Assembly: GCF_055900595.2 (NCBI RefSeq)
Contig: NZ_CM148325.1
Reading direction: 5' to 3' (one strand)
Length of the DNA stretch: 64,000 nt
Under the pieces are notes generated by a model. It was not told the origin of the DNA and did no database searches. It saw only the letters and a program-made list of their open reading frames with translations. Both the position numbers and the translations under genes were made by a program. How positions within the stretch are numbered: position 1 is the stretch's first letter; each line of letters begins with the position of its first letter. This document shows, in pieces, positions 1,032-28,296 of the stretch.

Positions 1032-4000
1032 TGTCGCCGAGACACTAGATCCTTTGCGCTTGCCCTTACAGGGCGAGCGCCTGATTGAAGCCTCTGCCGG
1101 CACAGGCAAAACCTTTACGATTGCGGCGCTCTATTTGCGCCTGTTACTTGGACTAGGCGGTTCTGCCGCCTTTCCCCGCCCGCTGACCGTTGAAGAACTG
1201 CTGGTGGTGACCTTTACCGAGGCTGCCACGGCAGAATTGCGCGGTCGTATCCGTAGCAATATCCACGAGTTGCGCATCGCCTGTCTGCGTGAAACCACCG
1301 ACAATCCACTGTACGAACGCCTGCTGGAAGAGATCGACGATAAAGCGCAAGCCGCGCAGTGGTTGTTGTTAGCCGAACGGCAGATGGATGAAGCGGCAGT
1401 CTTTACTATTCACGGTTTTTGCCAGCGCATGCTCAACTTGAATGCCTTTGAATCCGGCATGCTGTTTGAGCAGCAGCTGATTGAAGATGAGTCTCTGCTA
1501 CGCTACCAGGCCTGCGCCGATTTCTGGCGTCGCCACTGCTACCCGCTGCCGCGTGAAATTGCCCAGGTGGTCTTTGAAACCTGGAAAGGGCCGCAGGCGT
1601 TGCTGCGCGATATTAATCGTTATCTGCAAGGCGAAGCACCGGTTATCAAAGCACCGCCGCCCGATGATGAAACGCTGGCTTCCCGCCACGCGCAAATTGT
1701 GGCGCGTATTGATACGGTAAAACAGCAGTGGCGCGACGCAGTGGGTGAACTGGATGCGCTGATCGAATCTTCTGGTATTGATCGACGCAAGTTTAACCGT
1801 AGCAATCAGGCTAAATGGATCGAGAAGATCAGTGCCTGGGCAGAAGAAGAGACCAACAGTTATCAGTTACCGGAGTCGCTGGAAAAATTCTCTCAGCGTT
1901 TCTTAGAAGATCGCACGAAAGCCGGGGGGGAAACCCCGCGACATCCACTGTTTGAGGCGATCGATCAACTGCTTGCAGAACCATTGTCGATCCGTGATCT
2001 GGTGATCACCCGCGCATTGGCTGAGATCCGCGAAACAGTAGCGCGTGAAAAACGCCGCCGTGGCGAATTGGGTTTTGATGACATGTTAAGTCGGCTCGAT
2101 TCCGCGCTGCGTAGCGAAAGCGGCGAGGTGTTGGCAGCGGCGATCCGTACGCGATTCCCGGTGGCAATGATTGATGAATTTCAGGATACCGACCCCCAGC
2201 AGTACCGAATTTTTCGCCGTATCTGGCACCATCAGCCGGAAACCGCATTGTTGCTGATTGGCGACCCGAAACAGGCCATATATGCATTCCGGGGTGCGGA
2301 TATCTTCACTTATATGAAGGCGCGTAGCGAAGTTCACGCCCACTACACCTTAGATACCAACTGGCGCTCCGCACCAGGAATGGTGAACAGCGTGAATAAG
2401 CTTTTCAGTCAGACTGATGACGCGTTCATGTTTCGCGAAATACCGTTTATTCCAGTGAAATCAGCCGGGAAAAATCAGGCGTTACGTTTTGTGTTTAAAG
2501 GTGAAACGCAGCCTGCGATGAAAATGTGGCTGATGGAAGGCGAAAGCTGCGGCGTTGGCGATTATCAAAGTACCATGGCGCAGGTATGTGCTGCGCAAAT
2601 CCGCGACTGGCTACAAGCCGGACAGCGGGGCGAAGCGTTGCTGATGAACGGCGACGACGCGCGTCCGGTGCGTGCTTCGGACATCAGTGTGCTGGTGCGC
2701 AGCCGCCAGGAGGCCGCTCAGGTGCGCGATGCCTTAACGCTGCTGGAAATCCCTTCCGTTTACCTTTCGAACCGCGACAGTGTTTTTGAAACTCTGGAAG
2801 CGCAGGAGATGCTTTGGCTGTTGCAGGCGGTGATGACACCAGAACGTGAGAACACCCTGCGCAGTGCGCTGGCAACGTCAATGATGGGGCTGAATGCGCT
2901 GGATATTGAAACGCTGAATAATGACGAACATGCGTGGGATGCGGTAGTCGAAGAGTTCGATGGTTATCGGCAAATCTGGCGCAAACGTGGCGTTATGCCG
3001 ATGCTGCGGGCGCTGATGTCGGCGCGTAACATTGCAGAAAACTTGCTGGCAACAGCAGGCGGTGAGCGGCGTCTTACCGATATCTTGCATATCAGCGAAT
3101 TGCTACAAGAAGCCGGAACGCAGCTGGAAAGTGAACATGCGCTGGTACGCTGGTTATCGCAACATATCCTCGAGCCAGACAGTAATGCCTCCAGCCAACA
3201 AATGCGTCTCGAAAGTGATAAACATCTGGTGCAGATTGTCACGATCCACAAATCGAAAGGGCTGGAATATCCATTGGTCTGGCTGCCGTTTATCACCAAT
3301 TTCCGCGTCCAGGATCAGGCGTTTTATCACGATCGCCACTCGTTTGAGGCTGTTCTGGATCTTAATGCTGCGCCAGAAAGCGTCGACCTCGCGGAGGCCG
3401 AACGTCTGGCGGAAGATCTGCGTTTGCTTTACGTTGCGCTGACGCGTTCGGTTTGGCATTGCAGTCTCGGCGTTGCACCGCTGGTGCGCCGTCGTGGCGA
3501 TAAAAAAGGTGACACCGACGTCCACCAAAGTGCGCTCGGGCGTTTGCTGCAAAAAGGGGAACCGCAAGATGCGGCAGGGCTTCGCACCTGTATTGAAGCG
3601 TTATGCGATGATGATATTGCCTGGCAAACGGCACAAACTGGTGATAACCAGCCCTGGCAGGTTAATGATGCTTTAACTGCAGAACTGAATGCGAGGACGC
3701 TACAACGATTGCCCGGCGATAACTGGCGTGTCACCAGCTACTCCGGTTTGCAGCAGCGTGGTCACGGTATCGCTCAGGATCTGATGCCACGGCTGGATGT
3801 TGATGCCGCAGGCGTGGTCAGCGTCGTTGAAGAACCGACGTTAACACCGCATCAGTTCCCGCGCGGTGCGTCACCAGGGACATTCTTGCACAGTTTGTTT
3901 GAAGACCTCGATTTTACCCAGCCGGTTGACCCGAACTGGGTACAGGAAAAACTGGAACTCGGCGGCTTTGAATCGCAGTGGGAACCAGTGTTGACCGAGT

Positions 4001-4566: not shown

Positions 4567-6392
4567 TGAAATTGCAAAAGCAATTACTGGAAGCTGTGGA
4601 GCACAAACAGCTACGCCCGCTGGATGTGCAATTTGCCCTGACCGTGGCGGGAGATGAACATCCTGCCGTCACCCTCGCGGCAGCCCTGTTAAGCCACGAC
4701 GCCGGGGAAGGGCATGTCTGTTTACCGCTCTCACGACTGGAAAATAACGAGGAGTCACATCCGCTGTTAGCAACCTGCGTCAGCGAAATCGGTGAGTTAC
4801 AAAATTGGGAAGAATGCTTGCTGGCTTCACAAGCGGTCAGCCGGGGAGATGAACCAACGCCGATGATCCTCTGTGGTGATCGTCTTTATTTGAATCGCAT
4901 GTGGTGTAACGAGCGCACAGTGGCACGCTTTTTCAACGAAGTGAATCATGCCATTGAGGTTGATGAAGCTCTACTGGCGCAAACCCTGGACAAACTTTTT
5001 CCAGTAAGCGATGAAATTAACTGGCAAAAAGTGGCGGCGGCAGTGGCGCTGACGCGGCGGATCTCGGTGATTTCCGGCGGCCCTGGCACCGGTAAAACGA
5101 CCACCGTAGCGAAGTTGCTGGCAGCGTTAATTCAAATGGCAGACGGCGAACGCTGCCGTATCCGTCTGGCTGCACCAACGGGTAAAGCTGCCGCGCGCTT
5201 AACCGAATCTCTCGGCAAGGCTTTGCGCCAGTTACCGCTGACCGATGAACAAAAGAAACGCATTCCGGAAGATGCCAGCACTTTGCACCGATTGCTGGGT
5301 GCGCAGCCGGGTAGCCAGCGTTTACGTCATCATGCCGGTAACCCGCTGCATCTTGATGTGCTGGTGGTAGATGAAGCGTCAATGATCGATCTGCCTATGA
5401 TGTCGAGACTGATCGACGCCTTGCCCGATCATGCGCGAGTGATCTTTCTCGGCGATCGTGATCAACTGGCCTCGGTTGAGGCTGGGGCTGTGCTGGGCGA
5501 TATCTGCGCTTATGCCAATGCGGGCTTTACCGCAGAGCGTGCCGGGCAGCTAAGCCGCCTGACGGGAAGCCACGTCCCGGCGGGAAGCGGTACGGAAGCG
5601 GCATCTTTGCGCGACAGTCTCTGCCTGCTGCAAAAAAGCTATCGTTTCGGCAGCGATTCTGGCATTGGTCAGTTAGCTGCGGCGATCAACCGTGGTGATA
5701 AAACGGCAGTGAAAACCGTTTTTCAGCAGGATTTTACTGATATCGAAAAACGGCTTTTACAGAGCGGCGAAGACTATATTGCGATGCTTGAGGAGGCTCT
5801 TGCGGGTTACGGGCGTTATCTGGATCTGCTTCAGGCACGTGCCGAGCCGGATTTAATCATTCAGGCGTTCAATGAGTACCAGCTTTTGTGCGCCCTGCGG
5901 GAAGGGCCGTTTGGCGTGGCTGGACTGAATGAGCGAATTGAGCAGTTTATGCAACAGAAGCGCAAAATTCATCGTCATCCGCACTCTCGTTGGTACGAAG
6001 GCCGACCAGTGATGATTGCCCGTAATGACAGCGCGCTTGGGTTGTTTAATGGCGATATCGGTATTGCGCTGGATCGCGGGCAGGGGACGCGCGTCTGGTT
6101 TGCGATGCCGGATGGCAATATTAAGTCTGTGCAACCGAGCCGCCTGCCAGAACACGAAACCACGTGGGCGATGACGGTACATAAATCGCAGGGATCGGAG
6201 TTTGACCATGCGGCGTTGATTTTACCGAGCCAACGCACGCCAGTTGTAACGCGAGAGCTGGTTTACACTGCGGTGACCCGCGCGCGTCGCCGTCTGTCGT
6301 TGTATGCCGATGAGCGCATATTAAGTGCGGCAATCGCCACTCGTACTGAGCGGCGCAGTGGTCTGGCGGCGTTGTTTAGTTCGCGGGAATAA
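4566..6392 (+). CDS. recD: RecBCD exonuclease V subunit alpha (helicase)
   Basis: 608 aa, GGPGTGKTT Walker A; ATG overlaps recB stop by 1 nt (TAATG). Confidence 0.95.
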
Positions 6393-8191: not shown

Positions 8192-9445
8192 ATGTCGGGA
8201 TCCAACACAGCAATCAGCCGTCGTCGTTTACTGCAAGGCGCGGGTGCCATGTGGCTATTGAGCGTAAGTCAGGTCAGTCTGGCTGCGGTCAGCCAGGTCG
8301 TGGCGGTGCGCGTCTGGCCTGCGTCCAGCTACACCCGTGTGACGGTAGAATCTAATCGTCAGCTGAAATATAAGCAGTTCGCGTTGAGTAACCCTGAACG
8401 CGTGGTGGTGGATATCGAAGATGTAAACCTGAACTCAGTGCTCAAGGGGATGGCGGCACAAATTCGTGCTGATGACCCGTTCATCAAGTCGGCGCGCGTC
8501 GGGCAGTTTGACCCGCAAACCGTGCGGATGGTTTTTGAGTTAAAGCAAAACGTAAAACCGCAGCTGTTTGCCCTTGCTCCGGTCGCCGGGTTTAAAGAGC
8601 GTCTGGTGATGGATCTCTATCCTGCCAATGCTCAGGACATGCAGGACCCGCTGCTGGCGCTGCTGGAGGATTACAATAAAGGCGATCTCGAAAAGCAGGT
8701 GCCGCCTGCGCAGAGTGGCCCGCAGCCAGGCAAAGCAGGGCGCGATCGTCCGATTGTCATTATGCTTGACCCTGGCCATGGCGGCGAAGACTCCGGTGCG
8801 GTGGGGAAATACAAAACGCGTGAAAAAGATGTGGTATTGCAAATTGCCCGCCGTTTGCGCTCTCTGATTGAGAAAGAGGGCAATATGAAAGTTTACATGA
8901 CCCGTAATGAAGACATCTTCATTCCGTTGCAAGTGCGCGTAGCAAAAGCACAGAAACAGCGTGCTGACTTGTTTGTCTCTATTCATGCCGATGCCTTTAC
9001 CAGTCGCCAGCCGAGCGGTTCCTCTGTGTTTGCGCTCTCTACCAAAGGTGCAACCAGTACCGCGGCAAAATATCTGGCGCAAACTCAGAACGCCTCGGAC
9101 TTGATTGGTGGCGTGAGTAAGAGCGGCGACCGTTATGTCGACCATACTATGTTCGATATGGTGCAGTCGCTGACCATTGCCGACAGTCTGAAGTTTGGTA
9201 AAGCTGTGTTGAATAAGCTCGGTAAAATCAACAAGCTGCATAAAAATCAGGTTGAACAAGCCGGGTTTGCCGTGCTGAAAGCGCCTGATATACCCTCCAT
9301 TTTGGTCGAAACGGCGTTTATCAGTAACGTTGAGGAAGAACGTAAACTGAAAACGGCAACCTTCCAGCAGGAAGTTGCGGAATCAATCCTCGCAGGGATA
9401 AAAGCGTATTTTGCCGATGGGGCGACGCTGGCGAGAAGGGGATAA
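8192..9445 (+). CDS. amiC: N-acetylmuramoyl-L-alanine amidase AmiC (Tat-exported)
   Basis: [19 protein letters not shown] twin-arginine signal; amidase_3 domain; ORF track start trimmed to MSGS. Confidence 0.9.
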
Positions 9446-9615
9446 TGTTTTTATTTATTCAATGAATTTATATTTCGTTGAATAGATAATATTTACCTGA
9501 ATATTAGACGTTGGTTTTGTGACTGATGTCGAATATTTGAATGTCGGCTTGAAAAATAAGCCGACCATCTCTTTAATTAAGCACAATTCCGTGTAATGTA
9601 TATGCATTAGTTAAT

Positions 9616-9698
9616 CATCTTGTAACTGTTAAATCAGGCAAGGCAATGTTTGAAGTAATTATTACTTCTGACGTGCCTTGCCTTTTTTTTTGGAGCTA
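9616..9698 (+). promoter_or_regulatory. RAT-like antiterminator target overlapping a rho-independent terminator in the leader of the BglG-family gene
   Basis: ttgtaactgttaaatcaggcaaggca resembles RAT elements (bgl/sac type); stem ggcaaggca (9637-9645) pairs with tgccttgcc (9674-9682), followed by a T run of nine; inner palindrome gaagtaat/attacttc. Confidence 0.6.
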
Positions 9699-9702
9699 TG
9701 GA

Positions 9703-10527
9703 ATGATCATCGAAAAAGTCATGAACAATAATTGTGTACAGGCATCGATGAATGGACAGGAGGTTATCATTTCTGGGCCTGGCGTCGGTTACAACAAAAA
9801 ATATGGAATGTCGGTCCCTGAGCATCCGGCTAACCGGATTTTTTATGTCAGAAATGAACAAAAAAATAAACTCTACAAATTGATTGAACATGTGGATATT
9901 GAGTATGTTTTTGTTGCCGAAAAAATAGTGCAATATGCGGAGAACAATCTCGAAAAAAATCTCAATCCATCGCTACTATTGATTCTTGCTGATCATATTT
10001 CGAATGCAATATCCCGAGTCGCTTCAGGCATACAAATTAATAATGTTTTCCTTGATGAAATCAAAGCGTTGTACAAAGCAGAGTATGCGATAAGTCGCGA
10101 TGCATTAACTATCATTAATGAGCAATTCAGCGTTCAACTTCCTGATGATGAGATTGGTTTTATAGCATTGCATATTTTAAATAATTATGAAAATTCAGTT
10201 GATTATGAATCAGTACGGATTATTGAGTTGTCGCAAATAATCACGGGGCTTATTGAAGTTGTTTATAACAGAAAGGTGGACAGAAGTTCATTTAATTATT
10301 CCAGGTTCATGATACACCTTAAATATTTTTCAAGTCGCGTATTATGCAATGAAAAAATAAAACAGAAAGATATTGGTGATCTCTATGAACAGTTTCTTGA
10401 GAAAGACATTCTGTTACAGCGCGCAATTCATGAAATTGAAAGGTATTTGTACGCCACTTTTAAATATGAATTGATTTTGGAAGAAAAACTATATCTCTCT
10501 ATTCGCACCAAAGTATTAATGGACTGA
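9703..10527 (+). CDS. BglG/LicT-family transcriptional antiterminator (CAT RNA-binding domain plus two PRD domains)
   Basis: N-terminus MIIEKVMNNNCVQASMNGQEVIISGPGVGYNKKYG typical of the CAT domain; about 275 aa; start chosen downstream of the terminator, so ORF track start 9646 is rejected; AT-rich. Confidence 0.75.
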   Translation: MIIEKVMNNNCVQASMNGQEVIISGPGVGYNKKYGMSVPEHPANRIFYVRNEQKNKLYKLIEHVDIEYVFVAEKIVQYAENNLEKNLNPSLLLILADHISNAISRVASGIQINNVFLDEIKALYKAEYAISRDALTIINEQFSVQLPDDEIGFIALHILNNYENSVDYESVRIIELSQIITGLIEVVYNRKVDRSSFNYSRFMIHLKYFSSRVLCNEKIKQKDIGDLYEQFLEKDILLQRAIHEIERYLYATFKYELILEEKLYLSIRTKVLMD

Positions 10528-10558
10528 TTATATATAACATTTATATGAGATAACCCGC

Positions 10559-12139
10559 ATGAAACAAAAGAAAGCCTGGAGTTTTTTTCAGAGCCTGGGA
10601 AAGGCATTTATGTATCCCATCGCTCTGCTAAGTGTATGTGGCATGATGTTAGGGCTAGGAAGTGGTTTAGCCAGCGATGATATGGCAAAATTAATTCCAC
10701 TACTGGCTATTCCCGTAATTAAAACCATTCTTGATTTTATTGTTAGCCTTGGTTTGTTTGCCTTTGTCAATTTACCTGTATTGTTTGCGATAGCTATACC
10801 TCTGGGGTTATTAAAAGAGAAAGAGGATAAAGCCTATGGCGCTTTTTCTGGCTTAATTGGTTTCATGGCGATGCATCTGGGAACGAACTTTTATCTTAAA
10901 CAACATGACTTATTGGTCGCTGCTGATCAAATGTCGACACATGGGCAAACCATTATTCTGGGAATCCAGTCCTACAATACCAGTGTGTTGGGTGGGATTA
11001 TAGCAGGATTATTAGTCGCCAGTATGTATAAAAAGATCGTTAACTTACGTATTCCTGAATCATTAGGATTTTATAGTGGCCCACGCCTGGTGCCTATTAT
11101 TACACTGATTGTGATGAGCGGATTTGGTCTGATCATCCCTTTTATCTGGCCGCCATTTTTCAATCTTTTCATGCTCATTGGCCACTGGATTTCAACTTCC
11201 GGTCCTGTTGGCTATTTTTTCTATGCAGTCGCCGAACGCGTGACGATACCTTTTGGTTTAAATCACCTGGTGACGTCAGTTTTCCGCTTTACCCCCATCG
11301 GCGGATCGGCAGTGATCGGCGGAGAAGAGTATTATGGCACCCTGAACATGTTTATGGCGTACGTCAAAGAGAATGCGGTCATTCCGCTGGATTTGGCGGG
11401 GAAAATGGAACAGGGCAAACTGATGATTCAGTATGGTCTGGCTGGTGCCGCGCTGGCGATGTATCGCACTGCTCATGCTCAAAACAGAAAAGCTATCAAA
11501 GCATTGCTTATTTCCGGGGTGCTTACAGTCATTATTGGCGGCGTCAGCGAACCGATTGAGTTTCTGTTCTTATTTGTCAGTCCACTGCTATTTGTCTTCC
11601 ATGCTTTTATGAATGGATTCGCCAACATGGTCTTGCCATATATGGGCGTGAAGATGGGATTTACTGGCGATCTGATTCAATTTATTAGCTTTGGCGTATT
11701 GCGTGGCACAAGAACAGGTTGGCCAATAGCGGTGTGTGTCGAAGTGGCCTATTTCTTTATTTATTACTTTGTGTTCCGTTGGACTATTCTCAAATTTAAC
11801 CTGATGACGGTAGGCCGTGAAGAGTCCAGTCCTGTCACGCTGAACGCTCATGAGGATACGGCTATAGCGGATATCCCACCGCTTGATAAATCAGAGCTGC
11901 AAGCAGCGGAGCAGATGGTTAAGGCACTTGGTGGTAAAGAGAATATTAAATCCCTGGATAATTGCGTAACTCGTTTACGTTTAACAATCGCAGATATGGG
12001 ATTGATTGACGAGGCAGCAATAAAAAGAGCTGGCGGAATTGCGGTTGTTAAACTTGATCAAAATACCCTACAAGTCATTATCGGTACTAAAGTCATCGCC
12101 TTGCGTCGGGATATGGATAACTACATGGGGATATGCTGA
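10559..12139 (+). CDS. PTS glucose-family EIICB component (C-terminal EIIB with CxTRLR phosphocysteine motif)
   Basis: Polytopic membrane protein with GVSEPIEF motif and C-terminal NIKSLDNCVTRLRLT; 526 aa; no EIIA domain. Confidence 0.8.
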   Translation: MKQKKAWSFFQSLGKAFMYPIALLSVCGMMLGLGSGLASDDMAKLIPLLAIPVIKTILDFIVSLGLFAFVNLPVLFAIAIPLGLLKEKEDKAYGAFSGLIGFMAMHLGTNFYLKQHDLLVAADQMSTHGQTIILGIQSYNTSVLGGIIAGLLVASMYKKIVNLRIPESLGFYSGPRLVPIITLIVMSGFGLIIPFIWPPFFNLFMLIGHWISTSGPVGYFFYAVAERVTIPFGLNHLVTSVFRFTPIGGSAVIGGEEYYGTLNMFMAYVKENAVIPLDLAGKMEQGKLMIQYGLAGAALAMYRTAHAQNRKAIKALLISGVLTVIIGGVSEPIEFLFLFVSPLLFVFHAFMNGFANMVLPYMGVKMGFTGDLIQFISFGVLRGTRTGWPIAVCVEVAYFFIYYFVFRWTILKFNLMTVGREESSPVTLNAHEDTAIADIPPLDKSELQAAEQMVKALGGKENIKSLDNCVTRLRLTIADMGLIDEAAIKRAGGIAVVKLDQNTLQVIIGTKVIALRRDMDNYMGIC

Positions 12140-13314
12140 TGGATGTTTTTAATACTCCTATTTCCCGCAAAGGAACATATTGTACCCAATGGGACTTTTG
12201 CGAGGACAGATTTGGTGTAAAAGATGTATTACCATTCTCTATTTCAGATATGGATCTTCCGATACCGGAAGCTATCATCAGGGCATTAAAAAAACGTCTG
12301 GAACACCCGATTTTAGGGTACAGCCGTTGGCAGCATGATGACTATCTGAATGCGATAGTCAATTGGTATCATCAACAATATAAAACTGAAATCAAACCAG
12401 AATGGATCACCTATAGCCCAAGCGTGATGTACTCCATTGCTAAAGCAATAGAGTTATTGACATCGCATGGTGATAATATTCTCGTTTTTACACCTGTCTA
12501 TAATGCATTTTTTGATATAATTAAACATAGTGAGAGAAATATTCTGACAGCCTCTTTGATTATAAAAAATGAGGGGGGCTACGCTATCAATTGGCAAGAT
12601 TTTGATCTTAAGATTCAAAGCGCAAAGATGGTGTTATTATGTAATCCTCATAACCCGACAGGAACCGTCTGGTCGGAAGAAGATCTGCATAAAATCGCTG
12701 CAAGCTGTGCAAGACATAATGTCTGGTTATGTTCAGATGAAATTCACAGTGATTTTGTTTTTAATCGTAGCTTTACATCTGCGCTTAAAATAAAAAAAGA
12801 AAAAGTAGTGGTGTTTAATTCGATATCGAAGACATTTAATGTTCCCGCGCTAACAGGATCGTATATGATTTCAACTGACGATAATTTTAATCATAAGTTC
12901 AGAACGATATCAAGATATCGCGATTTTGTAAACTCCCCATCCGTACTGAATATAATTGCAACTATTATTGCCTATAACGAATGTGAGGGATGGTTAAAGT
13001 CATTAAAGGCACATATTGCCTCTAACATTCAATTCACCCAGCAGTATCTGAACGAAAATACTCCAGAATTGATCGTAAGGCCAGCTGATGGTTGCTATTT
13101 TTCGTGGATAGATTGCTCTGCTATTGGTTATCCATTTGATGAATTCTACAGTCGATTAATTCATGAAGGCAAAGTGGGCATTATGGCGGGGAATGTCTAT
13201 GGAACGGAGGGGGAGGGCTACCTTCGTCTGAACCTGGCCTGCGGTCGAGAAAAATTATATATGGGGCTTACGCGTCTTGCGAGTGTAATTAAAAATATTA
13301 ATCAAGGAAAATAA
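12133..13314 (+). CDS. PLP-dependent aminotransferase class I/II, MalY/PatB-like C-S lyase
   Basis: 393 aa; SISKTF lysine motif; length and organisation after a PTS EIICB resemble malX-malY; overlaps the PTS gene by 7 nt. Confidence 0.7.
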   Translation: MLMDVFNTPISRKGTYCTQWDFCEDRFGVKDVLPFSISDMDLPIPEAIIRALKKRLEHPILGYSRWQHDDYLNAIVNWYHQQYKTEIKPEWITYSPSVMYSIAKAIELLTSHGDNILVFTPVYNAFFDIIKHSERNILTASLIIKNEGGYAINWQDFDLKIQSAKMVLLCNPHNPTGTVWSEEDLHKIAASCARHNVWLCSDEIHSDFVFNRSFTSALKIKKEKVVVFNSISKTFNVPALTGSYMISTDDNFNHKFRTISRYRDFVNSPSVLNIIATIIAYNECEGWLKSLKAHIASNIQFTQQYLNENTPELIVRPADGCYFSWIDCSAIGYPFDEFYSRLIHEGKVGIMAGNVYGTEGEGYLRLNLACGREKLYMGLTRLASVIKNINQGK

Positions 13315-13316
13315 AA

Positions 13317-13913
13317 ATGAACAGCACGGATCTTATCCATCTCATTAAACATTTTATGCGTAACGAACATAAAGCAGTTGAAGAAGTTATTGATTCCCCC
13401 CTTTCGGAGGTTGCAAATTTAATTAAAGTATTACAGTCTTGTCAGGGGAAAGTTGTTTTTATTGGTGTCGGTAAGTCCGGTATTATTGCCCGAAAACTCG
13501 CCGCAACATTTGCCAGCACTGGAACTCCCTCGTTTTTTGTTCACGGTACTGAAGCCGTACACGGCGATCTTGGGATGGTGGCGAAAGATGATGTTGTTAT
13601 TCTTATTTCAAACAGTGGTGAGACGACAGAAATCCTGGCAACACTACCTAGTCTGAAAAAAATGGGTAATTATTTGATCTCCTTTACCCGCAGTCATCGC
13701 TCATCGCTTGCGATAAGTTGTGATTTATCCGTTGAAATTCCCGTAAAAAGTGAGGCGGATAATTTAGGTTTAGCGCCGTCATGCTCATCAACAGTCGTTC
13801 TGGTTGTTGGTGATGCGGTGGCGCTTGCGCTCTCCGAATTGAAAAAGTTTACTCGTGCTGATTTCGGCTTATATCATCCAGGAGGTGCGCTCGGTATTAA
13901 AGCAAACTCATAA
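13317..13913 (+). CDS. SIS-domain sugar-phosphate isomerase, KdsD/GutQ-like (arabinose-5-phosphate isomerase fold) lacking the CBS pair
   Basis: GVGKSGIIARKLAATFASTGTPSFFVHGTEAVHGDLGMV...ISNSGET...GLAPSCSSTVVLVVGDAVALAL closely parallels the KdsD SIS domain; only 198 aa. Confidence 0.7.
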   Translation: MNSTDLIHLIKHFMRNEHKAVEEVIDSPLSEVANLIKVLQSCQGKVVFIGVGKSGIIARKLAATFASTGTPSFFVHGTEAVHGDLGMVAKDDVVILISNSGETTEILATLPSLKKMGNYLISFTRSHRSSLAISCDLSVEIPVKSEADNLGLAPSCSSTVVLVVGDAVALALSELKKFTRADFGLYHPGGALGIKANS

Positions 13914-13974
13914 TTTTAGAATATAAAACAGTAACCGGTCACGCCATCTTTTGGGGTGGCGTTCATTGATGTGA

Positions 13975-14931
13975 GTGTCAGCTATGAAAAACGTTCTGGT
14001 CACCGTTCCCAGCTTTTCAGCGCGTTGTGTTTCTGCCAGCAAGCTGCTAAGAGAAAATCATTTTAACCTTATTATCAAGAATAATGTGGAGCATCTGGTT
14101 AAATCAGAATCCACAGTATTACGAGAATCTATTTGCGCAGTCATTGCCGGAAAAGATTGTTATCAAGCGGATACGTTATCGCGACTACCAGGAGTGAAAA
14201 TAATATCGAGATTCGGGACAGGGATTGATAATATTGATCTTCATACGGCTCGACAATCAGGTATTGTGGTCAATAATGCTGTTGGGATTAATTCAAATGC
14301 AGTCGCGGAATTTATCATTGGTCTTATTTTTGCGAGCATGAGAAATATCCCCGGTAGCTATCATGCGATGCAAAATGGTTATTGGGGCGAGTCGCATGGC
14401 TGCGAGTTACAAGGTAAACGTATTGGCCTGCTTGGCTACGGCAATATTGGCAAAACACTGGCGAAAAGGTTATCTGGTTTTGATGTTGAGCTTTTAGCTT
14501 TTGACAAACAACCCGATTTCCAGGCCGCAGGCAAAGATGGAGTTCAGTTCGTATCAATTGAAGATATCTTTATGCAGTCTCATGTCATCATCGTTCTTTT
14601 GCCATTTTCTCCTGAGCTGGAGAACTTCATTAGTCATAAATATTTGTCGATGATGCGCAATGGTGCTCTTATCATCAACGCCGCAAGGGGAAAGTTGCTG
14701 GATGAGGGGGCTTTACTTCAGGTAATTGAAGAACGAAATGTTTTTGCAGCACTGGATGTGTTTAGCTCTGAACCGCTAGCGCAATTTAGCCCATTGCTAC
14801 ATGCCAGGAATATCATTACAACGCCGCATATTGCGGCCGCCACCGTTGAGTCATACCAGCAAACCGGGATATACGTTGCCAGGTCGATAATAGATTTCTT
14901 TGCAGGAAGGGAGATAAAAAACGTGCTGTGA
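13975..14931 (+). CDS. D-isomer-specific 2-hydroxyacid dehydrogenase (NAD-binding)
   Basis: GLLGYGNIGKTLAKRL Rossmann motif; ...ITTPHIAAAT catalytic His region; 318 aa. Confidence 0.75.
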   Translation: MSAMKNVLVTVPSFSARCVSASKLLRENHFNLIIKNNVEHLVKSESTVLRESICAVIAGKDCYQADTLSRLPGVKIISRFGTGIDNIDLHTARQSGIVVNNAVGINSNAVAEFIIGLIFASMRNIPGSYHAMQNGYWGESHGCELQGKRIGLLGYGNIGKTLAKRLSGFDVELLAFDKQPDFQAAGKDGVQFVSIEDIFMQSHVIIVLLPFSPELENFISHKYLSMMRNGALIINAARGKLLDEGALLQVIEERNVFAALDVFSSEPLAQFSPLLHARNIITTPHIAAATVESYQQTGIYVARSIIDFFAGREIKNVL

Positions 14932-14956
14932 GTTCAGCTAAGGAAGATTTCAGGTA

Positions 14957-14991
14957 CAAAAAAACCGCAATCTGTGAAACACATTGCGGTT
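14957..14991 (-). terminator. Rho-independent terminator of the tRNA-fMet operon (possibly bidirectional)
   Basis: aaaaaaaccgcaatctgtgaaacacattgcggttt: stem accgcaat/attgcggt with T run on the minus strand immediately 3' of the last tRNA. Confidence 0.55.
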
Positions 14992-15009
14992 TATCAGCAT
15001 CATAAGTGT

Positions 15010-15086
<77 letters not shown>

Positions 15087-15229: not shown

Positions 15230-15306
<77 letters not shown>

Positions 15307-15514
15307 TCCGTGGATGCGCACTATACTCCGCTCGCGTTTTCATGCAACCTTTTTTTTACCCAGATCACGGATTTGGTATGATTTTGAGCAAAAACAAATC
15401 ACTAAAGCCTGTTTTTTGTGCAAAATTTGCGTCAGGGAGAGGCTGCTCATTTCATTAAACGCGGCGGTTTGTTATCTTCATTGCGCCTTATTTTTTAAAC
15501 TGAAGAAGAGAACA

Positions 15515-16612
15515 ATGAAAGGACGTTGGGTAAAGTACCTTCTTATGGGCACGGTTGTGGCAATGCTTGCCGCCTGCTCTTCCAAACCAACCGATCGCGG
15601 ACAGCAATATAAAGACGGGAAATTTACCCAGCCTTTCTCTCTGGTAAACCAGCCAGATGCCGTTGGCGCGCCAATTAACGCCGGTGATTTTGCCGAGCAA
15701 ATTAACCATATCCGTACTTCGTCACCGCGTCTGTATGGCAACCAGAGTAATGTTTATAATGCGGTGCAGGAGTGGCTACGCGCAGGCGGTGATACCCGCA
15801 ATATGCGTCAGTTCGGCATTGACGCCTGGCAGATGGAAGGTGCCGACAACTATGGCAACGTGCAGTTTACGGGCTATTACACGCCTGTCATTCAGGCGCG
15901 CCATACCCGTCAGGGCGAGTTCCAGTATCCTATTTACCGTATGCCGCCAAAACGTGGTCGTCTGCCGTCTCGTGCGGAGATCTACGCGGGAGCATTGAGC
16001 GATAAATACATCCTCGCTTACAGCAACTCTCTGATGGATAACTTCATTATGGATGTGCAGGGTAGCGGGTATATCGATTTTGGTGATGGCAGTCCGCTTA
16101 ACTTCTTCAGCTATGCCGGAAAGAATGGTCATGCCTATCGCAGTATTGGTAAGGTGCTGATTGACCGTGGCGAAGTGAAAAAAGAAGATATGTCGATGCA
16201 GGCGATTCGTCACTGGGGTGAAACACACAGTGAAGCCGAGGTTCGCGAGCTGCTGGAACAGAACCCGTCTTTCGTCTTCTTTAAACCGCAATCTTTTGCT
16301 CCGGTGAAAGGGGCAAGTGCGGTGCCGCTGGTTGGTCGCGCTTCAGTTGCGTCCGATCGTTCCATTATCCCACCTGGTACAACCTTACTGGCAGAAGTGC
16401 CGCTGCTGGATAATAACGGCAAATTTAACGGTCAGTACGAACTACGGCTGATGGTGGCGCTGGATGTCGGTGGTGCAATCAAAGGCCAACACTTCGATAT
16501 TTATCAAGGTATCGGGCCGGAAGCCGGACACCGCGCAGGTTGGTACAACCACTATGGACGTGTTTGGGTGCTGAAAACCGCCCCGGGCGCAGGTAACGTC
16601 TTTAGCGGCTGA
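15515..16612 (+). CDS. mltA: Membrane-bound lytic murein transglycosylase A (lipoprotein)
   Basis: MKGRWVKYLLMGTVVAMLAACSS lipobox; start trimmed from ORF track (15233), whose N-terminal extension runs into the tRNA genes. Confidence 0.9.
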   Translation: MKGRWVKYLLMGTVVAMLAACSSKPTDRGQQYKDGKFTQPFSLVNQPDAVGAPINAGDFAEQINHIRTSSPRLYGNQSNVYNAVQEWLRAGGDTRNMRQFGIDAWQMEGADNYGNVQFTGYYTPVIQARHTRQGEFQYPIYRMPPKRGRLPSRAEIYAGALSDKYILAYSNSLMDNFIMDVQGSGYIDFGDGSPLNFFSYAGKNGHAYRSIGKVLIDRGEVKKEDMSMQAIRHWGETHSEAEVRELLEQNPSFVFFKPQSFAPVKGASAVPLVGRASVASDRSIIPPGTTLLAEVPLLDNNGKFNGQYELRLMVALDVGGAIKGQHFDIYQGIGPEAGHRAGWYNHYGRVWVLKTAPGAGNVFSG

Positions 16613-26979: not shown

Positions 26980-28296
26980 TCAGTTAGTTGCCGTTTGAGA
27001 ACGGAAACGGGCAAAGATAAAGATGACCGCGAAGCAGAGTGCGGGGATCAGTTCGGCTGTGGGGATGTTGCCCGCCGCGTCACTGACAAAACCCATGACC
27101 GGAGTGACAATACCGCCGCCAATAATGGTCATAACGATGAAGGACGAGCCGTATTTGGTGTCCTGGCCGAGATTCTTTATGCCCAGCGAGAAGATTGTTG
27201 GGTACTGAATCGACATAAAGGCGCTGCATAAAGTCAGGGCTATTAAACCCACATGACCGCCAGCGAAGGCTGAGATCAGGCACAGTGCCATAGCGATTAA
27301 TGCGTAGGCTGCCAGGACTTTGTGTGGTGCGAAGCGACTGATGAGCCAGGTGCCGGTGAAACGACCAATAAAGAAGCACACCATGGTTCCGGTTAAATAG
27401 TTAGCGGCAAAGCCTGCGGTCATACCTGGAATTTCTTCTACAGCGTAGCGAATCAAATAGCTCCAGCAGGCCGTTTGCGCGCCGACGTAGCAGAATTGCG
27501 CTAATACTGCCCAGCGCCAGTGGCGAATACGCGCCAGGCGAGAAAGCGATGCGGAGAACGATCCTTGTTTGGCGTCACTGTGATTATCACTCTGCAATGC
27601 CGGGAATTTCGTCAGCATGATCAGCAGGGCGACCAGTAACACGATAGCCACGATGATCATATAAGGTGTCTGTACCGATAATACCAGGCTGTGTTTATAC
27701 GCACTCAATTGCTCTGGTGACATTTTATCGAGAACGTCTTGCGATTGATGTGGCACGTTAGACAAAATAAGACTTTGCCCAAAGACAACCGCAATAATTG
27801 CGCCAAATGAGTTAAATGTTTGCGCAAGATTTAAGCGAAAGTGACCGCTGCTTTCTGGTCCTAATACCGTAACGAAAGGGTTTGCGGCAGTTTCCAGACA
27901 ACCTAATCCGGCTGCAATAATAAATAGGCCAATTAAAAATAAGGTGTAGTTCATTATTTCTGCGGCGGGCCAGAATAATGCAGCGCCGAAGGCATATAAA
28001 AACAATCCGGTAATAATCCCTGCTTTATAACTGAGTTTTTTCATCAATATCCCGGCAGGGATTGGGATAATGAAATAACCAAAGTAAAAGGCCGATTGGA
28101 TCAGACCTGCCTGAAAGTTTGTCAGCGTAAAAGCCTGCTGAAATTGAGGCAATAAAATGTCGTTAAGGTTATTGGCTACCGCCCAAAGAAAAAACAGTGA
28201 GCACAGCAGCGCGAATGGAATAATGTAACTTCTGCTTTGCCCTGCATCTTTATCTACCGCACGGTAACTCTGCGTTTGTATTGATGTGTTTCCCAT
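26980..28296 (-). CDS. fucP: L-fucose:H+ symporter (MFS)
   Basis: 438 aa polytopic membrane protein. Confidence 0.95.
   Translation of the reverse strand: MGNTSIQTQSYRAVDKDAGQSRSYIIPFALLCSLFFLWAVANNLNDILLPQFQQAFTLTNFQAGLIQSAFYFGYFIIPIPAGILMKKLSYKAGIITGLFLYAFGAALFWPAAEIMNYTLFLIGLFIIAAGLGCLETAANPFVTVLGPESSGHFRLNLAQTFNSFGAIIAVVFGQSLILSNVPHQSQDVLDKMSPEQLSAYKHSLVLSVQTPYMIIVAIVLLVALLIMLTKFPALQSDNHSDAKQGSFSASLSRLARIRHWRWAVLAQFCYVGAQTACWSYLIRYAVEEIPGMTAGFAANYLTGTMVCFFIGRFTGTWLISRFAPHKVLAAYALIAMALCLISAFAGGHVGLIALTLCSAFMSIQYPTIFSLGIKNLGQDTKYGSSFIVMTIIGGGIVTPVMGFVSDAAGNIPTAELIPALCFAVIFIFARFRSQTATN

Follow-up and report, generated by a model that had tools for sequence, protein, structure and literature searches.

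A probable BglG/SacY-type antitermination switch in the leader of a five-gene PTS insert in Escherichia coli

RESULTS

The five-gene PTS insert downstream of amiC

The window, a 64-kb stretch of an E. coli chromosome, carries recD, argA, amiC, a five-gene insert, three tRNA-Met genes (metZWV), mltA and tcdA, and an identical RefSeq locus with matching gene order was found. Comparison with K-12 showed that the homology ends exactly at the amiC stop codon (9443-9445), and that the 73-nt amiC-metV spacer of K-12, amiC terminator included, is replaced in the window. The insert extends from ~9446 to 15000 and has a GC content of 31-46%, as against ~52% in the flanks. CFT073 has these five genes as well, with amiC on one side and a 27-kb type VI secretion cluster, itself adjacent to metZWV, on the other. 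On the basis of position and gene content, the insert is taken to be the PTS module of PAI-CFT073-metV. In a synteny survey this module was listed as c3405-c3410, "PTS system, maltose/glucose specific," and it was present in 4/4 uropathogenic strains of an early 20-genome comparison (PMC2831201). In the literature searched, only this survey turned up, and no characterisation of the substrate or the regulation of the five-gene module was found. The 275-nt leader of the insert occurs in 1688 of 5426 complete E. coli genomes (about a third), with one copy per genome.

All five genes are on the plus strand. The first gene (9703..10527) encodes a 274-aa antiterminator of the BglG/LicT family with a CAT_RBD domain (residues 1-55), a PRD1 and a divergent PRD2. 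The Pfam matches (PF03123 at 1.4e-14 and PF00874 at 3e-26) and the match to the LicT structures 1tlv and 6twr (E = 1e-31 over residues 2-269, in which PRD2 is divergent yet aligns) established that the leader element described below is indeed located upstream of an antiterminator gene, as had been proposed from the sequence. His98, His157 and His205 are invariant and correspond to H100, H159 and H207 of LicT, while the position of the fourth PRD histidine (H269 in LicT) is occupied by Arg268 in the whole island family. Since BglG has an Asn at this position, Arg268 is not unusual among the enterobacterial members.

The second gene (10559..12139) encodes a PTS EIICB permease (PTS_EIIC, 4e-74; PTS_EIIB, 1.2e-14), whose EIIB cysteine motif reads NCVTRLR and which lacks an EIIA domain. 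The permease is presumed to be both the sugar sensor and the phosphoryl donor to PRD1, and it would presumably need an EIIA from another locus, such as Crr. The reading frames of the antiterminator and the EIICB are intact. The remaining genes, assigned by Pfam and PGAP, encode a MalY/PatB-type PLP enzyme (12139-13314), a single-SIS sugar-phosphate isomerase (13317-13913) and a 2-hydroxyacid dehydrogenase (13984-14931). The gaps along the five genes are 31, 0, 2 and 70 nt, and no convincing terminator was found between the island genes. The spacing and the absence of internal terminators suggested that all five genes are co-transcribed, and a weak promoter-like site at 13848-13877 pointed to a possible separate promoter for the last gene.

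A RAT-like sequence overlaps an intrinsic terminator in the leader

A preliminary description, made from the sequence alone, had reported a RAT-like sequence overlapping the 5' arm of a strong terminator hairpin upstream of the antiterminator gene. Every string of that description was found in the leader: ttgtaactgttaaatcaggcaaggca at 9620-9645, ggcaaggca at 9637-9645, tgccttgcc at 9674-9682, and the nine T that follow. From the pattern match, a bgl-like fold and conservation, we assigned the RAT (ribonucleic antiterminator) to 9617..9645 on the plus strand in a 29-nt register, with the conserved core TTGTAACTGTTAAATCAGGCAAG at 9620-9642. Using the pattern TTGTNACYGN6CRGGCAWR, we found a single zero-mismatch match in the window, at the core itself, and 0 of 100 shuffles gave a match; the pattern was written from known RATs after the sequence had been viewed, with N where the island has A, so that the test was not fully blind. 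No second RAT was found elsewhere in the window or elsewhere in the E. coli genomes. A match with two mismatches at 27067-27089 was within chance expectation (12 of 100 shuffles) and was discarded.

The two authentic bgl RATs were taken from the K-12 genome as controls. Folded alone, the island RAT has a free energy of -6.3 kcal/mol, compared with -6.4 and -7.8 kcal/mol for the bgl RATs, and the dot-bracket shape is identical. The predicted fold consists of a lower stem, a 2-nt UA/AA bulge and an apical stem-loop, the same topology as in bgl t1 and t2. The canonical outer closing pairs G1G2/C28C29 are absent, the flanks being AUC ... GCA, and position 8 is A or C, versus T or G in canonical RATs. 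Since the outer pairs are missing and position 8 is atypical, recognition by the CAT domain is assumed. The label "textbook" that had been given to the switch is to be qualified in respect of the absent outer pairs.

The intrinsic terminator (9636..9683, plus strand) is a hairpin of 21 pairs with two 1-nt interruptions in each arm and a UUA loop. The U-tract (9683..9691) is a run of nine T that follows the stem immediately, its first T also closing the stem; 8-9 T are found in all orthologues. Folding confirmed that the hairpin is stable, with -28.1 kcal/mol for 9634-9690 versus a shuffle mean of -8.5 (z = -8.8), and 0 of 200 shuffles were as stable. A simple terminator scan missed the hairpin at 9636-9683, probably because its stem has bulges.

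The 5' arm of the terminator (9636-9645) falls within the 3' half of the RAT. Because these nucleotides are common to the 3' strand of the RAT and the base of the terminator stem, the two folds are mutually exclusive. When the RAT pairs were forced, 10 basal pairs of the terminator were removed and -16.0 kcal/mol was left, at a cost of 12.1 kcal/mol. The residual upper hairpin stops 8 nt short of the U-tract, and it should not terminate transcription. Since the RAT is far weaker than the terminator, as it also is in established systems, termination would be the default state, and a protein would be required to hold the RAT.

We also scored the element against RF03530 (bglG-cis-reg), the curated Rfam family for elements of this kind. 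The model aligned to 9600-9707 on the correct strand with 13.4 bits (E = 4.5); the gathering score is 80, and the island element is not a member by the Rfam criterion. The authentic bgl t1 and t2 scored 22.4 and 24.3 bits, also under the threshold of 80. As the bgl controls fail too, the model misses enterobacterial RATs, and the failure of the island element says little about function. Rfam scans of 2-kb and 150-nt slices returned no significant family.

The Rfam models of Streptococcus SpF19 and Listeria rli52 weakly matched the authentic bgl RAT/terminators, which suggested that such leaders are sometimes catalogued as small RNAs. By analogy, the product of termination at the U-tract, an RNA of ~80-90 nt, might act as a small RNA, with its RAT likeness of secondary importance. 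We give next to no credence to this explanation: a target, an additional conserved single-stranded segment and an Rfam match for the element were all lacking, and the RAT and the terminator fully account for the pattern of conservation.

The start of the antiterminator gene lies downstream of the terminator

An automatic open reading frame begins at the ATG at 9646, which lies within the hairpin and is in frame with the antiterminator gene. The preliminary description held that this ATG cannot be the real start. We assigned the true start to the ATG at 9703-9705, preceded by the Shine-Dalgarno sequence GGAG at 9692-9695 (9692..9705 together, plus strand); both are invariant across genera. The gene start given by PGAP equals 9703, and the N-termini of LicT and BglG align to the MIIEKV encoded there. 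In the orthologous leaders outside Escherichia, the codon at 9646 is ACG in Atlantibacter hermannii and Citrobacter and AGG in one further leader (L014). The earlier dismissal of 9646 as a start therefore stands, although "cannot" was slightly strong. Attenuation by a leader peptide was rejected, since the frame opened by the ATG at 9646 continues into the gene with no stop codon, and this ATG is not conserved.

The U-tract ends 11 nt before the ATG at 9703, with the Shine-Dalgarno sequence inside this interval, so that a promoter downstream of the terminator is hardly possible. A consensus sigma-70 scan of 9300-10700 found no site. Blocks of conservation across 7 leaders pointed to a candidate promoter region at 9566..9611 on the plus strand. 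Within it, TAnnGT (9594-9599) is conserved in all lineages, and we would guess that it is a promoter element. Further upstream, TGTGA (9518-9522) is also conserved and might, as a guess from the motif, be half of a CRP site. One strain, ES7, carries an IS5-family insertion at 9607-9610.

Conservation of the leader in other genomes

Homologues with 77-80% protein identity were found in A. hermannii, at the same amiC-mltA site, and in metagenomic contigs with another upstream neighbour. A scan of species genomes added E. whittamii and two Citrobacter genomes. The RAT is identical in the 6 other aligned E. coli leaders, and its core does not vary in E. whittamii, A. hermannii and Citrobacter either. 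A 39-nt query over the RAT matched at an identity of at least 95% in 1687 of the 1688 E. coli genomes that carry the leader. In the most divergent E. coli leader aligned (O111:H8, 91%), 23 changes are found in the 171 nt upstream of the RAT and none in the RAT itself, and the single stem change, G9673A, converts a U-G pair to U-A. Between E. coli and A. hermannii, 2 of 29 positions differ in the RAT, 16 of 46 in the rest of the terminator and 77 of 171 in the upstream leader. The conservation of the RAT next to a diverged terminator and a diverged upstream region is the pattern typical of a sequence-specific protein site that precedes an element of which only the structure matters.

The terminator itself was examined on 9 distinct leaders, in which 93.7% of the cells are paired, versus at most 54% when the partner was slid. 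In the orthologous leaders of four other enterobacterial lineages the RAT sequence is kept, and the terminator is kept through compensatory changes. Three terminator pairs have compensatory double changes, including 9643/9676 (G-C to A-U). Position 9643 is RAT position 27, where it pairs with U9618 in either state. Because the pairs of the RAT stem are invariant, the stem shows no covariation, and the backing for its fold comes from analogy and thermodynamics; invariance of the RAT sequence is what is predicted for a protein-binding site. A terminator-like hairpin within the antiterminator gene, at 9824-9839, was considered as a second attenuator; as the O111 lineage, E. whittamii, A. hermannii and the Citrobacter-like sequences have all lost it, it was rejected as chance.

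It could be argued that the hairpin mainly serves amiC as a constitutive terminator or insulator, and that the RAT is a non-functional relic of a cryptic, horizontally acquired operon. The loss of K-12 homology at the amiC stop, together with the K-12 amiC terminator, fits this argument, as do the poor U-tract of the only other hairpin after amiC (9543-9565, -13.3 kcal/mol), the island promoter not having been identified in the sigma-70 scan, and a low-GC, AT-rich composition like that of the silent bgl operon. A relic would decay, yet the RAT is the best conserved non-coding segment, between flanks that diverge by 35-45%. A. hermannii keeps the RAT/terminator despite a separate canonical amiC terminator ~330 nt upstream, and in the Citrobacter-like contigs L017-L019 the element has accompanied the antiterminator gene to another, non-amiC context. 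With the intact frames of the antiterminator and the EIICB added, we consider the relic explanation very unlikely. Given its low GC content, the island may nevertheless be poorly expressed or silenced by H-NS like bgl.

To look beyond the island family, we used a tighter pattern, TTGTNACTGNTAAANCAGGCAAG, which has 20 fixed bases and for which ~0.5 chance matches would be expected, assuming equal base frequencies. Among 100,044 species genomes it gave 120 exact matches in 117 stretches, nearly all in Bacillota (~115 loci), plus the island family in Enterobacteriaceae. Scoring was possible for ~110 matches, and for most of them the best fold of the sequence from the 3' end of the RAT onwards is a hairpin that runs from within CAGGCAAG to a T-run. 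A BglG-family protein is encoded on the same strand at ~65 loci. In the usual layouts, its gene either begins 80-300 nt beyond the RAT or ends shortly before it; the island, at +83, shows the former.

Comparison with known antitermination systems

Among the closest known systems is bgl t1: there, too, the leader of the antiterminator gene itself carries a RAT that overlaps part of an intrinsic terminator, and the gene of the sensor EII comes next. Both BglG and the island protein lack the fourth PRD histidine, and both systems lie in AT-rich, horizontally acquired settings. The bgl operon has a second RAT/terminator, t2, between bglG and bglF, where the island has a 31-nt gap and one RAT per genome. 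The terminator overlap is larger in the island, with a ddG of 12.1 kcal/mol versus 6.3 (t1) and 5.5 kcal/mol (t2) in bgl. The island permease is a Glc/Mal-type EIICB in the order C-B without EIIA, BglF is of the BCA type, and the island antiterminator is only 25% identical to BglG.

The sequence comparison with bgl bears on the question of which protein works the switch. The island RAT and bgl t1 are identical at 16 of 29 positions, including the conserved blocks TTGT.ACTG...CAGGCAA. Limited cross-talk is known within the family, as for SacY, SacT and LicT of B. subtilis, and the shared blocks would be compatible with a real switch that is operated by another antiterminator, such as the chromosomal BglG, rather than by the island protein. 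However, the island RAT is unlike the bgl RATs at positions 1-3, 8 and 26-29, and the flanking and internal-loop positions of RATs set specificity. In every lineage, moreover, a dedicated CAT-domain gene lies 83 nt from the RAT. We therefore regard control by another antiterminator as extremely improbable.

RATs of Bacillota resemble the island RAT more closely. The Bacillus forms matched by the tighter pattern are GGTTTGTTACTGATAAAGCAGGCAAGACC, located upstream of a levansucrase-like gene, and GGATTGTGACTGGTAAAGCAGGCAAGACC, which we take to be the sacB and sacPA RATs (SacY/SacT). GGTTTGTTACTGATAAAGCAGGCAAGACC equals the island RAT at 20 of 29 positions and is thus closer than bgl, and a Clostridium type, GGATTGTTACTGTTAAATCAGGCAAGACC, equals it at 23 of 29, with all of the UUAAAU apical loop and CAGGCAAG among the shared positions. 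The loop is also identical in RATs of Metabacillus and Lachnospiraceae. In the Bacillus and Clostridium types, the 5' arm of the terminator begins inside GCAAG, as in the island. On the other hand, the Bacillota RATs have paired flanks (5' GGA/GGT and 3' ACC), whereas those of the island are ATC and GCA/ACA. Most RATs of the sacB and Clostridium types precede a PTS or sucrase gene, and the island RAT precedes the antiterminator gene. The antiterminators that adjoin Bacillota RATs are only 30-40% identical to the island protein. A joint origin of the island RAT and protein from Clostridium was not supported, as the adjacent antiterminators there are ~31% identical, no closer than others.

In gene order and autoregulatory logic, the island resembles nagY-nagE of Enterococcus faecalis, in which a single RAT/terminator lies in the 5'UTR ahead of the antiterminator gene (PMC9981650). 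The nagY RAT was described as a poor match to the consensus, and NagE transports GlcNAc (PMC9981650). The island differs from nagY-nagE in its RAT sequence, in its host and in the three extra enzyme genes of the operon. Both nagY-nagE and GlcT-ptsG of B. subtilis have a PTS permease gene under the control of a BglG-family antiterminator, which acts through a terminator-overlapping RAT.

DISCUSSION

The element at 9617-9691 has the RAT, the overlap, the terminator and the partner gene that characterise the BglG/SacY family of switches. We consider it highly probable (about 0.87) that the leader is a functional antitermination switch of this type that controls the island operon. From the arrangement of the leader and its genes we infer that the island protein binds the RAT, that the operon is under sugar and PTS control, and that the antiterminator gene is autoregulated in vivo. 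The switch is a new example of a well-known mechanism, unannotated in the RefSeq records examined, and the mechanism itself is not new. We found no published description of this leader switch in a literature search that did not extend to the most relevant survey, the genome-wide RAT search of Gordon et al. (2015), so that a prior description is possible.

In the proposed mechanism, transcription would start somewhere upstream of 9617, and the RAT (9617-9645) would be transcribed first, alone forming only its weak hairpin of -6.3 kcal/mol. With no active protein present, the terminator hairpin would capture the 3' strand of the RAT, and the nine-U tract would release the polymerase 11 nt before the start codon. 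When the EIICB transports the sugar of the island, EIIB would stop phosphorylating PRD1 of the antiterminator. The antiterminator would then dimerise, and its CAT domains would clamp the RAT hairpin. The clamped RAT would withhold the 10 basal nucleotides of the terminator, allowing read-through into the genes of the antiterminator, the EIICB and the three enzymes. As the switch precedes the gene of its own antiterminator, induction would feed forward, and basal read-through would be needed at the start.

An operon behind a RAT/terminator offers a direct handle: with the leader fused to a reporter, candidate sugars could be screened for the inducer, and deletion of the terminator or mutation of the PRD1 histidines should give constitutive expression of the operon. 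The MalY/PatB, SIS and dehydrogenase genes suggest amino sugars and glycated or amino-acid-linked sugars as candidate inducers. The switch also explains the wrong automatic start at 9646 and adds a regulatory feature that is missing from the RefSeq records examined.

A bolder reading is that the island RAT belongs to a distinct specificity class, insulated from BglG, and that the switch gates amiC transcripts into the island. Because the island replaced the terminator of amiC itself, the switch may decide whether amiC transcripts stop or enter the island. We regard this combined reading as rather unlikely; if true, it would link expression of the operon of a cell-wall amidase to an ExPEC-associated sugar pathway, and the insulation from BglG would concern strains with both systems. 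The features of the RAT that lie behind the notion of a distinct class are that position 8 is A or C, that C3 and G26 form an additional pair, and that the G1G2/C28C29 clamp is absent.

Possible transcription input upstream of the switch

Homology to K-12 stops at the amiC stop codon, which is TAA in the window strain versus TGA in K-12, and the K-12 amiC terminator is replaced by the island (9443-9565). The sole hairpin between amiC and the RAT, at 9543-9565, has a folding energy of -13.3 kcal/mol and a poor U-tract; it was found only in E. coli and is degraded in the O111 lineage, which has the most divergent E. coli leader aligned. Since the K-12 terminator is replaced and the remaining hairpin has a poor U-tract, amiC transcripts may read on as far as the RAT/terminator.

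Two short blocks 5' of the RAT, at 9516-9524 and 9591-9602, are conserved in the E. coli, E. whittamii, A. hermannii and Citrobacter-like leaders. The first block contains TTTGTGA, a possible half of a CRP site located some 80 nt upstream of the likely start, and TAnnGT within GTGTAnnGT in the second could serve as a -10 element. A scan of the region of these blocks upstream of the RAT detected no consensus promoter.

In E. coli ES7, ISEc68 (IS5-like; 372-1352 of the ES7 locus) is inserted at TTAG (9607-9610), just 5' of the RAT, splitting the entire upstream leader, plus any promoter there, from the switch. ES7 was the only one of the 1688 E. coli genomes with the island leader to carry an ISEc68 insertion near the RAT. 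The silent bgl operon is activated through insertion of IS1 or IS5, and the ES7 insertion, which may either activate or abolish expression, is reminiscent of such events.

Rfam coverage of enterobacterial RATs

We scored the experimentally characterized E. coli RAT/terminators bgl t1 and t2 of K-12 with the Rfam model RF03530 (bglG-cis-reg). Against a gathering score of 80, bgl t2 (3610-3732 of the K-12 bgl locus) reached 24.3 bits and bgl t1 (4572-4677) 22.4 bits. Because these authentic elements score far under the gathering score, Rfam annotation is effectively blind to enterobacterial RATs.

The antiterminator gene

Codon 268 (10504-10506) of the antiterminator gene encodes Arg in all members of the island family, where LicT has the fourth conserved PRD histidine, H269, and E. 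coli BglG has Asn. The replacement of this histidine by Arg suggests that HPr-dependent control exerted through PRD2 differs in the island family from the LicT paradigm. In the avian pathogenic strain APEC O2-211, the gene is broken after about 68 codons by an ISVsa5 transposase (IS4-like; 1758-3182 of that locus, window ~9703-9910), and the island regulator is a pseudogene there. A terminator-like hairpin with a TTTTTT tail at 9824-9839, within the coding region, is probably a chance occurrence, as it is absent in the O111 lineage, E. whittamii, A. hermannii and the Citrobacter-like sequences.

Enzyme genes and the 3' end of the island

The enzyme genes 3' of the PTS gene (12139-14931) encode a MalY/PatB-type PLP enzyme, a 198-aa single-SIS isomerase and a 2-hydroxyacid dehydrogenase, a set that matches no sugar pathway known to us. 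The island with these genes is widespread.

Past the final gene of the island, the long run of T of the hairpin at 14962-14992 lies on the minus strand; this hairpin is therefore mainly the metZWV terminator and only a weak terminator for the plus strand. The PTS module directly adjoins the tRNA genes in the window strain (~14932-15010), whereas CFT073 has a type VI secretion cluster of 27 kb (18023-44290 of the CFT073 locus) separating metZWV from the module. Thus, the PTS module and the secretion cluster are separable parts of "PAI-metV". The mechanically called ORF 15233-16612 (459 aa) is an over-extended mltA that runs through a tRNA gene; PGAP places mltA at the equivalent of 15515-16612.
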